Shown: positions 28,333-31,279 of the stretch, in pieces
Layout of the letters: each line of letters begins with the position of its first letter
Position numbering within the stretch: position 1 is the first letter of the stretch
Virus record (IMG/VR): IMGVR_UViG_2724679140_000015
DNA length: 35,494 nucleotides
Origin: a virus
Taxonomy: Duplodnaviria > Heunggongvirae > Uroviricota > Caudoviricetes
Direction: 5' to 3' (one strand)
Made by a program: the position numbers and the translations under genes
Notes under the pieces: generated by a model
What the model saw: the letters and a program-made list of their open reading frames with translations, nothing else
What the model was told of the DNA's origin: nothing
The model's database searches: none

Positions 28333-30102
28333 ATGAATGCTGCCCTGACTGAACGACTGGTTTATGTCGCCCGCGCGGCACGTGACGCGGGGCATGGTAA
28401 ACGCGGTGCAATATACGACGCTGCCTGTGCTGAACTTGGCATGTCCCGCGCCACTCTGCTGCGCAGGCTGAAGGAGGTCTCTGTGACTGATAAACGCAAA
28501 AAACGCGCCGATGCCGGGCGCAGCGCCCTGACCCGCGACGAAGCCGCGCTGATATCTGCCACACTGCGTGAGGCCACCCGCAAGAACGGTAAGCGTCTTT
28601 ATTCCATCGCGGATGCAGTGGAAACCCTGCGGGCTAACGGCTTTATCTCCGCAGGCAGAACAGATGAAACCACCGGTGAGTTTTTCCCGTTGTCCGAAGA
28701 TGCCATCAGTCGTGCCCTGCGTAACTATGGCCTGCACCCGGAACAACTGGATGCCCCTGCACCGCATACCGAAGTGGCCAGTCTGCACCCCAATCATGTC
28801 TGGCAGATTGACGCCTCACTATGCACGCTTTACTACCTGAGCAATGGACATAAAGGGCTGCAGGTGATGGACAGCGCGAAATTCTACAAGAACAAGCCCG
28901 CTAACCTTGCCCGTATCGCCAGTGACCGCGTGTGGAGTTACGAGATTACCGACCATGCCAGCGGCTGGATTTACGTTGAGTATGTGACGGGTGCGGAATC
29001 CGGTGAGAACCTGTGTTCTGTGCTTATCAACGCCATGCAGGAGCGCGGTGGCGCAGACGTGCTGCACGGCGTGCCGAAAATACTCTATCTCGACCCCGGT
29101 TCGGCGAACACCGCGGGTATGACGAAAAACATGTGCCGCTCACTGGGCATCGACCTGATAGCGCACAGGCCGCATAACGCCCGCGCCACCGGACAGGTGG
29201 AAAAGGCGCGTGACATTATCGAACGCAAGCTGGAGCCGGGTCTGAAGTTCCGGCCGGTTCACAGTCTGGAAGAACTCAACGCGCTGGCCGCGAAATGGCG
29301 CAGCCACTTTAACGCCACGGCTGTTCACAGCCGCCACGGTAAAACCCGCACGGATATCTGGCTGAAGATTACTGCTGAGCAGCTGAAAAAAGCGCCTTCC
29401 GTTGAGGTATGTCGTGAACTGGCTGTGGCGGCACCAGAACTCCGCAAAGTCACGCCAAAACTTCGTGTCTCGTTCCGGGGCACTGAATTTGACGTATCAA
29501 CGGTACCGGGCGTACTGGTCGGTGAAAAACTGATGATTACCCGTAACCCGTGGCGCAGCGATGTGGCACAGGTGGTTCTGACCGGTGAGGACGGCCACGA
29601 GACGTTCTTCCTGGTCGAAGAGGTCAGAAAGAACGAGTTTGGCTTTGCTGAAGGCGCGGCGGTATTTGGCGAAAGTTACAAAGCCCTGCCGGAAACCCCG
29701 GCGCAGATGGCGGCAAAAGAAACCGAAGCGCTGGTCACCGGTACAGACAACGCCGCAGATGCAGCTGCCGCACGCAAGGCGAAGGCACTGCCGTTCGGCG
29801 GACGACTTGACCCGTATAAACATATTGATGACGCCACACTTCCGGCCTATATGCCGAAGCGTGGTCAGGCCTCTGACGTACGCGGGCCGCGCACTGAACA
29901 ACGTCCCATGACTCATGTGGAGGCCGCGAAAGCCCTGCGCGATAAGTTCAGCGCCAACGGCCTTACCTGGACGCCGGAACATTACCGCCAGTTAACGGCA
30001 CAGTACCCGGACGGCGTACCGGAAGCCGCACTGGATGAAGTCATGGCCACGCTGACCACGCCGGTCCGCAGCAGTGTTATCAGCATTGTTAACGGCAACT
30101 GA
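28333..30102 (+). CDS. DDE transposase A (retroviral integrase-fold)
   Basis: 589-aa ORF with N-terminal HTH-like region and catalytic-core-like WQIDAS...ITDHASG motifs; followed by the ATPase gene. Confidence 0.75.
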   Translation: MNAALTERLVYVARAARDAGHGKRGAIYDAACAELGMSRATLLRRLKEVSVTDKRKKRADAGRSALTRDEAALISATLREATRKNGKRLYSIADAVETLRANGFISAGRTDETTGEFFPLSEDAISRALRNYGLHPEQLDAPAPHTEVASLHPNHVWQIDASLCTLYYLSNGHKGLQVMDSAKFYKNKPANLARIASDRVWSYEITDHASGWIYVEYVTGAESGENLCSVLINAMQERGGADVLHGVPKILYLDPGSANTAGMTKNMCRSLGIDLIAHRPHNARATGQVEKARDIIERKLEPGLKFRPVHSLEELNALAAKWRSHFNATAVHSRHGKTRTDIWLKITAEQLKKAPSVEVCRELAVAAPELRKVTPKLRVSFRGTEFDVSTVPGVLVGEKLMITRNPWRSDVAQVVLTGEDGHETFFLVEEVRKNEFGFAEGAAVFGESYKALPETPAQMAAKETEALVTGTDNAADAAAARKAKALPFGGRLDPYKHIDDATLPAYMPKRGQASDVRGPRTEQRPMTHVEAAKALRDKFSANGLTWTPEHYRQLTAQYPDGVPEAALDEVMATLTTPVRSSVISIVNGN

Positions 30103-30112
30103 GGAGGAAAAC

Positions 30113-31279
30113 ATGCTGGTACTGAAGCAGCAACTGAAAGAGGCCCGTATCCCACAGGCGGTGGTGGCGAGAGCTGTCGATGTTTCTGAGGCCACGCTGG
30201 CCCAGATTGTGAATCATAACGCGTGGCCCCGCACCCGCCCCGGAGAAGTGCGCCGGCGTCTTGCGTCCTGGCTGGAAAGTCAGGGGATTGATACAACGAA
30301 GAGTTTTGATGCTGTACAGGGCGCGGCCACGCCCCGTACAGCGGGTACCACAGATAAAACGAGCCTCAGTGAGGAAGAGAATATGTTACTCAAAAAACAG
30401 GTGTTATTTCCAGCAACCAAAAAAGCGTTTGGTCTTTTCCGTGACCCGTTCGCCGACGAAGCCATGCAGGGTTCTGATGATGTGTTCACCACCCCGGACA
30501 TCCGCTATGTGCGTGAAGCGCTGTACCAGACAGCCCGTCATGGTGGGTTTATGGCCGTCATCGGTGAGTCCGGTGCGGGCAAATCCACGCTGCGCCGCGA
30601 CCTGACTGAACGAATCAACCGCGAGAATGCGCCGGTAATTGTTATCGAGCCATACGTCATCGCTATGGAAGACAACGATGTGAAAGGGAAAACTCTGAAG
30701 GCAGCAGCGATTGCCGAAGCCATTATCAGTACCATTGCACCACTGGAAAGCATCAGACGCAGTCAGGACGCCCGCTTTCGCCAGTTGCATCGCGTCCTGA
30801 AAGACAGCAGCCAGGCGGGGTTCAGCCACGTTCTGGTGATTGAGGAGGCCCACAGCCTGCCCATTCCGACACTGAAACACCTCAAACGCTTTTTTGAGCT
30901 GGAGTCCGGTTTCAAAAAACTGCTGTCCATCGTGCTGATTGGCCAGCCGGAACTGGCGACAAAACTGTCTGAACGCAATATGGAAGTCCGTGAAGTCGTT
31001 CAGCGCTGTGAGGTGGTCGAACTTCTGCCTCTGGACAATCACCTTGAAGAGTTTCTGACGTTCAAACTGCAACGGGCCGGTAAACAACTGACGGACATTA
31101 TGGACGCCAGCGCAGTGGATGCCATACGTGCCCGCCTGAGCAATCCGGGAAGTCATCGTAAAAACAGGGTCAGCCTGCTGTATCCGCTGGCCGTCAGTAA
31201 CCTGGTAATAGCCGCCATGAATCTGGCTGCTGAAATCGGGGTTCCACAGGTCAACGCTGACGTTGTCAAAGGGGTTTAA
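30113..31279 (+). CDS. transposition ATPase B (AAA+, MuB/TniB-like)
   Basis: Walker A GESGAGKST; N-terminal HTH-like segment; GAGGAGG RBS 5 nt upstream of ATG 30113. Confidence 0.7.
   Translation: MLVLKQQLKEARIPQAVVARAVDVSEATLAQIVNHNAWPRTRPGEVRRRLASWLESQGIDTTKSFDAVQGAATPRTAGTTDKTSLSEEENMLLKKQVLFPATKKAFGLFRDPFADEAMQGSDDVFTTPDIRYVREALYQTARHGGFMAVIGESGAGKSTLRRDLTERINRENAPVIVIEPYVIAMEDNDVKGKTLKAAAIAEAIISTIAPLESIRRSQDARFRQLHRVLKDSSQAGFSHVLVIEEAHSLPIPTLKHLKRFFELESGFKKLLSIVLIGQPELATKLSERNMEVREVVQRCEVVELLPLDNHLEEFLTFKLQRAGKQLTDIMDASAVDAIRARLSNPGSHRKNRVSLLYPLAVSNLVIAAMNLAAEIGVPQVNADVVKGV

Follow-up and report, generated by a model that had tools for sequence, protein, structure and literature searches.

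AAA+ ATPases of the B type decide the insertion sites of Mu-like phages and of many transposons, as well as their self-avoidance. Here we describe one such gene, B, in a viral stretch of 35,494 nucleotides (IMG/VR record IMGVR_UViG_2724679140_000015; the whole stretch is called the window below), and an ATG at position 30383 inside its reading frame that is probably a second, working start of translation. Internal in-frame starts that delete an N-terminal domain are known from T7 gp4A/4B, IF2 and Tn5 Inh. T7 gene 4 carries an in-frame internal Shine–Dalgarno (SD) sequence with its ATG; the short form lacks the N-terminal nucleic-acid-recognition element, and both forms co-assemble in an NTPase oligomer. 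Tn5 Inh is an N-terminally truncated transposase without the DNA-binding end, made from its own transcript, which acts as an inhibitor, and the ClpB95/80 isoforms of Escherichia coli arise from an internal start. Two isoforms have also been described for ClpB of Mycobacterium tuberculosis (PMC6168691). MuB consists of a flexible four-helix N-terminal domain with a helix-turn-helix (HTH) and an AAA+ module (PMC11292022). The function of this head was called unresolved in 2024 (PMC11292022), and filament–filament contacts have been proposed for it. When its first 65 residues are removed, MuB still shows ATPase activity, forms filaments and supports target immunity; only the 'stickiness' of the filaments is lost (PMC3894238).

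The window is a BcepMu-like transposable prophage (genus Bcepmuvirus), and B lies directly downstream of the gene for a DDE transposase, A. Below, B-long denotes the product that starts at ATG 30113 and B-short the product proposed to start at ATG 30383, which is codon 91 (Met91) of B-long.

Conservation of the internal start signal

Homologs of B were compared in two sets. Set 1 comprised 80 genome loci from Enterobacterales, Pasteurellaceae, Burkholderiales, Neisseriales and Rhodocyclales with 55–94% protein identity, reduced to 52 sequences with <95% nucleotide identity. Set 2, independent of set 1 and more distant, comprised 80 viral contigs fetched by peptide patterns other than those of set 1, which gave 54 distinct contexts whose ATPase module is <68% identical to that of the window. 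Together the two sets give 106 distinct contexts from homologs, which belong to Enterobacterales, Pasteurellaceae, Burkholderiales and metagenomic phages and reach as low as ~50% identity. The internal site is an ATG in every one of them (52/52 in set 1 and 54/54 in set 2, 106/106 pooled), and Met at this site is nearly universal among 150 representatives clustered at 50% identity. In set 1, Met91 and the motif MLL-[KAR]-[KR]-Q, just after a hypervariable linker, are invariant in all intact copies, and their DNA has an AGGA, GAGG or GGAG core ~5–9 nt before the ATG in all copies. Over the pooled contexts, such a core stands 4–10 nt upstream of the ATG in 102 of 106, compared with 5.5% of 38,228 other in-frame codons. 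The first-pass annotation, made from the window's letters alone, had proposed the internal start and had named a motif not conserved in homologs as evidence against it; the ATG and the SD are kept at the nucleotide level in every intact homolog examined.

The pattern of substitutions distinguishes constraint on the nucleotides from constraint on the protein. The upstream AGG core is fixed at −11 to −9 relative to the ATG (in set 2, A at −11 in 53/54, G at −10 in 51/54 and G at −9 in 45/54). Position −10 is a third codon position, occupied by G in 49/52 sequences of set 1 and 51/54 of set 2, and it is the most conserved third position of B in both sets, among 381 and 298 columns, respectively. 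The codon to which it belongs, codon −4, encodes seven kinds of amino acid (E, K, Q, T, G, A and P): GAG occurs 55 times, AAG 20, CAG 16, ACG 7, GAA 3, GGA 2, and GCG, AAA and CCG once each, so that 100 of 106 are NNG. Synonyms are avoided, with 20 AAG against one AAA, 16 CAG against no CAA, and ACG as the sole Thr codon, and the five residues before the internal Met form 65 different pentapeptides in the 106 contexts. As the third-base G is fixed while the residues vary, it is the nucleotides rather than the amino acids that are conserved. At the end of the linker, the acidic patch (E/D-E/D) looks largely like a by-product of the in-frame SD, and would be a clear case in which a ribosome-binding site dictates the amino-acid motif that contains it.

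Downstream of the ATG, the third base of Leu92 is A in 49/52 and 49/54 sequences, ranking joint first with position −10 in set 1 and third in set 2, where GC at third codon positions (GC3) is 0.72. The rare Leu codon TTA (or CTA) at 30386–30388 is kept even in Burkholderia genes of 63% GC; its conservation is stronger than low structure alone obviously requires, and ATGTTACT is an almost fixed octamer. The six codons past the ATG have A at 0.50 and 0.55 of their third positions in sets 1 and 2, compared with 0.18 and 0.13 in the rest of the gene. In set 1, a 41-nt window around the internal ATG has a median minimum free energy of −3.6 against −7.9 for the gene and belongs to the 25% least structured windows in 42/52 sequences; local GC is 0.41 versus 0.54 and is low even in genes of 63% GC. 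A programmed frameshift at CTC AAA AAA C was considered and dropped, most homologs having GCA AAA or CGC AAA there, with no A-run.

Two further measures single out the same place. Synonymous codon identity, counted over same-residue pairs of set 1, peaks at codons 85–101 with 1.3–1.45 times the expectation (gene mean 1.00, standard deviation 0.13). In a scan of SD:anti-SD pairing energy over the same 52 sequences, codon 91 is the top column of the gene, with a median of −6.5 kcal/mol and 52/52 at −5 or lower, and no SD was found at the other conserved Met codons (185 and 369). In set 2, the internal ATG has a median energy of −9.5, and 342 other in-frame ATGs have one of −1.7. Two laboratory phages carry the same signal, BcepMu at Met105 (cAGGAGGaatccATG) and B3 at Met97 (GAGGAGtgcgaccccATG). 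Taken together, these alignments show that the start signal is under purifying selection, beyond that on the protein, throughout the BcepMu/B3 family.

A second synonymous peak, of 1.3–1.38 times the expectation, was seen at codons 182–193 (30656–30691, EPYVIAMEDNDV), with neither a start codon nor an SD. These codons overlap the pattern EPY[IV][IL]AME by which set 1 was retrieved, and the retrieval may therefore account for part of the peak. In set 2, for which other patterns were used, the Asn/Asp columns 105 and 106 (numbered along the set 2 alignment, not as window codons) rank 4th and 11th for third-position conservation.

The two start contexts and the domains they delimit

The first-pass annotation had observed that the start context of B recurs 270 nt downstream and in frame, and both contexts were found at the coordinates and with the sequence described. 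Aligned without gaps from −12 to +21, they share 19 of 33 positions, which places the internal site second among the 502 + strand ATGs by likeness to the first start (mean 10.6, standard deviation 2.6). In PhiKM, a near-identical phage, none of 14 other annotated gene starts scores above 15/33 against the first B start, so the resemblance of the two starts exceeds generic similarity between ribosome-binding sites. A peptide repeat, EENML(V/L)LK(Q/K)Q, had also been read from the two contexts. Its ML(V/L)LK(Q/K)Q part is real, whereas the first 'EEN' is untranslated SD sequence read in frame.

The eight N-terminal residues of B-long (30113–30136, MLVLKQQL) and of the proposed B-short (30383–30406, MLLKKQVL) share M-L-x-x-K-(Q)-x-L. 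When the whole protein is scored with a position-specific scoring matrix of the internal 8-mer, the N-terminal 8-mer comes out as the best match in 48/52 sequences (34/52 when Met is left out), and the likeness holds in Enterobacterales, Pasteurellaceae and Burkholderiales. This common signature may be the scar of a duplication, a signal shared by both N-termini or a preference at initiation. The N-terminal peptide of B-short would read (f)MLLKKQVLFPATK.

At the first start, the stop codon of A (TGA, 30100–30102) overlaps the SD, in the layout TGA-GGAGG-AAAAC-ATG at 30100–30115, and this overlap suggests that B-long, rather than B-short, is translationally coupled to A. The SD of B-long is present in 98% of the 52 homologs of set 1, usually abutting the stop codon of A. 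TGAGGAGG, the SD of B-long, begins with this TGA, and most homologs have TAAGGAG or TGAAGGAG in its place. A GTG at 30074, an upstream start that would make 'EEN' coding, was rejected: it lies over the end of gene A and lacks an SD, and the homologs begin at the ATG. In B there is one more in-frame pair of SD and ATG, at 30551–30553 (Met147), with GGTGGG upstream (−6.0 kcal/mol), in the AAA+ core just before the Walker A motif. Met147 is not conserved (27/52 sequences) and is most likely a chance start site. An SD-like motif with an in-frame ATG is not rare and not significant in a single sequence, and the significance of the internal start at 30383 comes from the comparative data.

The internal ATG coincides with a domain boundary in the predicted structure. 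A first AlphaFold (AF2) model, built from 20 close homologs, was poor (predicted local distance difference test score, pLDDT, 64; <50 at residues 69–90) and was replaced by a model from 90 sequences with a mean pLDDT of 93.5. In the latter, residues 72–84 of the linker are the only stretch with pLDDT <50, and confident order in the AAA+ module sets in at about residue 91, so that the linker ends and the module starts at the internal ATG; FGLFRDPF, which follows MLL-KQ-L, is conserved as protein. In a Foldseek search, the whole model matched Cdc6/Orc1, TnsC and RFC, and the protein ends with the AAA+ lid, without a C-terminal extension. A sequence search of the PDB with the whole-protein profile gave only P-loop matches to ABC ATPases and was uninformative. 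The profile of residues 1–60 matches XRE/Cro/HipB HTH chains in the PDB, and PHROG 296 matches residues 1–64 at 8e-16. The earlier suggestion that an internally started product would lose an N-terminal HTH is consistent with both the AF2 boundary at about residue 91 and the XRE/Cro HTH match of the N-terminal domain. The long frame is clearly maintained as well, with its own SD, a conserved folded N-terminal domain and linker indels that are always multiples of three, which indirectly suggests that it is translated. Some relatives among the 150 representatives have another or a longer N-terminal region, attached at the same place.

Natural variants without the head were found in several prophages. 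In Lonsdalea quercina and L. iberica (loci L048, at 2369–2575, and L053), ~200 nt of apparently non-coding DNA separate A and B, and tblastn with the N-terminal domain found no remnant of it. The Lonsdalea B open reading frame (ORF) has 301 residues and opens with MEAR-MLLKKQ, with GGAGGcaaggATG in front of MLLKKQ; at the DNA level it reads ATGGAGGCAAGG-ATG-TTA-TTG-AAA-AAA-CAG, with GGAGG and a 5-nt spacer before the ATG. This ATG, homologous to the internal one, is where Lonsdalea B probably starts. In a Lelliottia prophage (L036), only a 19-residue leader takes the place of the head, and this headless B follows directly after the transposase. In Erwinia tracheiphila (L019, 2501–2770), a 1-nt deletion in a T run (AAGAGTTTGATG compared with AAGAGTTTTGATG) shifts the frame between head and linker; the short ORF of 298 codons is intact, and only a head peptide and an internally started ATPase could be made.

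Proposed products of gene B and competing explanations

We favour the reading that B is a nested two-product gene for B-long, of 43.0 kDa, and B-short, of 33.1 kDa. Ribosomes starting at ATG 30113 would make B-long, in which the disordered linker joins the HTH head to an AAA+ module of the Cdc6/TnsC type, and this start would probably be coupled to translation of A because its SD overlaps the A stop codon. Ribosomes that bind the internal SD independently would start at ATG 30383 and make B-short, the AAA+ module alone (298 residues), so that both proteins may come from one early mRNA. B-short would then be a functional core ATPase that assembles alone or with B-long on target DNA, a role favoured by the MuB truncation data together with the prophages that encode only the short form. 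The ratio of long to short would set the number of HTH heads on the oligomer and in this way tune the role of the head. A bolder version, which we put forward as a rather unlikely speculation, would make the gene a stoichiometry device: coupled B-long would be made at about one per A, B-short would be initiated independently and in excess and form the bulk of the target-DNA oligomer, and the sparse HTH heads would mark engagement of A or bridge filaments. The shared M-L-x-x-K-(Q)-x-L would then be a functional signal, either a partner or protease tag or an initiation enhancer, maybe duplicated upon insertion of the HTH module. If this were true, the dosage of a MuB-type N-terminal head would be controlled by translation in a whole phage family.

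Several points weigh against two products. The support for the internal start is comparative throughout, and the homologs are related by descent, so that the raw counts overstate their independence. Residues 91–100 are ordered (pLDDT 94) and conserved as protein (MLL-KQ-L), and the conservation of Met91 by itself could therefore be structural. In the window's own clade, the internal SD is only moderate (GAGGA, −6.5 kcal/mol, compared with −12.1 at the first start), and the local fold at the internal start, at −6.4, is not especially weak. Six of the 150 representatives begin at Met91 and were not counted as evidence for a short form; the one checked (P0126) is a truncated contig whose frame is open upstream. 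The role given to the isoform ratio is extrapolated from MuB, to which B has no BLASTP similarity (E 2.5).

The role of B-short could also be the opposite one, as the first-pass annotation had it: a dominant-negative inhibitor of transposition, like Tn5 Inh, acting through inactive mixed oligomers with B-long. The conserved internal start would yield a form without the putative DNA-binding head, AAA+ proteins act as oligomers, which makes mixing plausible for a protein whose fold matches TnsC and Cdc6, and truncated inhibitor isoforms are known in transposition systems, as Tn5 Inh shows. We nevertheless hold this to be quite unlikely, because MuB without its first 65 residues keeps its ATPase, filaments and immunity (PMC3894238), prophages that encode only the short form beside the transposase do not fit a pure inhibitor, and Tn5 Inh is a truncated transposase and not an ATPase. 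Inhibition by B-short is not indicated by these comparisons.

Other explanations do away with the short protein or with initiation altogether. Met91 and the acidic residues before it might be structural in B-long, or an SD-like pause might help the HTH head to fold. That MLL-KQ-L and FGLFRDPF are conserved as protein and ordered in the model, and that acidic residues before the Met are common, would fit such a constraint on protein or elongation, but codon −4 varies over at least seven residues with G kept as its third base, 65 different pentapeptides stand before the Met, and a pause site needs neither an ATG at 5–9 nt nor A-rich unstructured codons behind it. The Lonsdalea ATG with its own GGAGG, as the likely start of the sole B product, speaks in the same direction, and we regard this explanation as very improbable. 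We give marginally less weight still to a fossil of gene fusion, in which the AAA+ module was once a separate gene and its surviving ribosome-binding site and start no longer initiate. The site lies exactly at the module boundary, genes without the N-terminal domain begin at or just before the internal ATG, and other or longer N-terminal regions are joined at the same point in relatives, all of which fits a fusion; a functionless ribosome-binding site, however, should decay at synonymous sites, and its G is the best-conserved third position in two data sets and several proteobacterial orders, while the codons past the ATG stay A-rich and low in structure despite a host GC3 of 0.6–0.7. The least credible source of the synonymous constraint is some other overlapping element, i.e. 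a protein-binding DNA site, an RNA structure or a gene in an alternative frame. TTA after the ATG and ATGTTACT are conserved more strongly than a ribosome-binding site strictly needs, and the second synonymous peak at codons 182–193 occurs without a start codon. Against this, the conserved bases are those of a canonical SD, a 5–9 nt spacer and an ATG, and the region is less structured than the gene average. An overlapping gene was rejected because stops interrupt frame +1 in 19 and frame +2 in 38 of the 52 sequences, and no alternative frame is open across the internal site in all of them. An internal promoter, as in Tn5, was rejected too: no sigma-70-like promoter or other promoter-like site was found upstream of the internal start, and the linker there is hypervariable. 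The fusion relic, the protein-level or pause constraint and the overlapping element are all hard to reconcile with fixed third positions, SD–ATG geometry and A-rich unstructured codons.

If B is indeed a two-product gene, a family-wide internal start that selection maintains and that removes exactly the head would mean that B subunits with and without a head are both required in these phages. The internal start would thus open the role of the MuB-type N-terminal head to direct experiment, and the BcepMu/B3 family includes the tractable phages BcepMu, phiE255, B3 and JBD67. No internal start in B genes of the BcepMu/B3 type, or in other transposable-phage genes, was described in the literature searched, the coverage of which was incomplete, and no experimental work on the B protein of this family was found there.

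The locus, its annotation and the systems it resembles

The A–B region of the window is 97.9% identical to that of Escherichia phage PhiKM and ~89% identical to that of Klebsiella phage KP12, a record classed under Vequintavirinae though BcepMu-like across this region. The features of the locus are collected in Table 1. Gene A is labelled 'transposase' in the PhiKM and KP12 records, and the order A–B recurs in PhiKM, KP12, BcepMu, B3 and the genome loci. Within the early transposition operon, B is flanked by the transposase gene and a Gam homolog. Its counterparts are BcepMu gp08, phiE255 gp39 and B3 ORF11 ('transposase B subunit').

Table 1. Coordinates of the genes, start signals and domains in the A–B region of the window
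Feature	Position	Strand	Details
Gene A	28333..30102	+	DDE (rve) transposase, 589 aa; Pfam rve 2.7e-9; PHROG 310 transposase 3e-147
SD of B-long, GAGGAGG	30101..30107	+	5-nt spacer (AAAAC) to ATG 30113; SD:anti-SD dG −12.1 kcal/mol
B-long coding sequence	30113..31279	+	388 aa, 43.0 kDa; HTH N-terminal domain, linker and AAA+ module; ORF call
N-terminal four-helix HTH domain (aa 1–60)	30113..30292	+	B-long only; AF2 helices 3–10, 15–21, 26–35, 43–56, pLDDT 95–98
Linker (aa 66–86), hypervariable, indel-rich, disordered	30308..30370	+	Alignment: indels, no conservation
Internal SD core, GAGGA	30371..30375	+	Codons 87–88 (Glu-Glu); 7-nt spacer (AGAGAAT) to ATG 30383
Internal ATG (Met91), proposed start of B-short	30383..30385	+	In frame, 270 nt (90 codons) past ATG 30113
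B-short coding sequence (proposed)	30383..31279	+	298 aa, 33.1 kDa, AAA+ module only; deduced from SD and ATG conservation
A-rich, weakly structured initiation region	30386..30403	+	Codons 92–97, LLKKQV; Leu92 is TTA
Walker A, GESGAGKST (aa 151–159)	30563..30589	+	Sequence; G154, G156 and K157 invariant in 90 sequences
Walker B, VLVIEE (aa 240–245)	30830..30847	+	Sequence; E245 and H247 invariant in 90 sequences

The B protein matches Pfam AAA_22 (3e-20) and, over its full length, PHROG 296 'DNA transposition protein' (4e-93). Its motifs, AF2 model, Foldseek hits and Pfam match place it in the AAA+ fold class of the target-selection ATPases MuB, TnsC and IstB, and from its position after the transposase and the PHROG 296 match we would say that B is a transposition ATPase. 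All phage records annotate it as a single coding sequence, including those of PhiKM, KP12, BcepMu (gp08) and B3 (ORF11), often under misnomers such as 'ExeA', 'Eha' or 'type II secretion protein', which is where a two-product reading would also bear on annotation. 'ExeA family' and 'Eha' are database labels of B; in PQ738613, AY539836, PQ349087 and OM835952 it is named 'Eha protein', 'exe/eha type II secretion pathway subunit', 'type II secretion system protein' and 'hypothetical protein'. A gene of the B type has been taken in the literature as a possible virulence factor (PMC2628397). One NCBI protein (P0001) has 493 residues and is 99% identical along all of B; its ~105 additional residues are probably due to an over-extended or fused gene call reaching into the end of gene A.

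ExeA/GspA and MshM, ATPases of type II secretion and pili, resemble B in their AAA_22 P-loop domain and in an FGL..PF motif near the start of the ATPase module. B differs from ExeA/GspA in its A–B operon context in a transposable phage, its PHROG 296 assignment and the absence of a C-terminal extension, and no exeB-like neighbour was found in the ORF and feature tables. 'ExeA' names the domain of B rather than its function. TnsC of Tn7 and of CRISPR-associated transposons, an AAA+ regulator that couples a DDE transposase to the choice of target, is among the closest solved folds (8fcu_Q, 7m99_A and 7mcs_F; Foldseek E 1e-7 to 1e-5), but shares only 13–15% sequence identity with B and has no HTH head of the B kind; to our knowledge no internal start has been reported for it. 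MuB is like B in its place after the transposase gene of a transposable phage and in its architecture of HTH head and AAA+ module. The profile of the B N-terminal domain matches MuB residues 10–63 weakly (hhalign probability 64%, E 6e-5), and as judged from these matches B is an analogue of MuB in architecture whose membership of the same family is not demonstrable. Unlike B, MuB has 312 residues and no Met at the domain boundary, and we know of no internal start in it.

Outside target selection, the closest parallels are in how two products are drawn from one gene. ClpB, as B would be, is an oligomeric AAA+ ATPase with an internal start at the boundary after the N-terminal domain, giving a full-length form and one without the N-domain. 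It differs in being a cellular protein disaggregase with a substrate-binding N-domain and a hexameric ring, whereas B is an HTH-headed ATPase of the Cdc6/TnsC type for phage transposition, and the isoforms of ClpB are observed while those of B are predicted. Tn5 Inh and B-short would both be N-terminally truncated in-frame products of a transposition system; in the case of B-short, however, the truncated product would be an accessory AAA+ ATPase, with the transposase gene A separate and no internal promoter seen. T7 gp4 resembles the predicted arrangement in B, as a phage gene with an in-frame internal SD and ATG whose short form loses an N-terminal element, although it is a RecA-type helicase-primase, not an AAA+ transposition factor, and bears no sequence relation to B.

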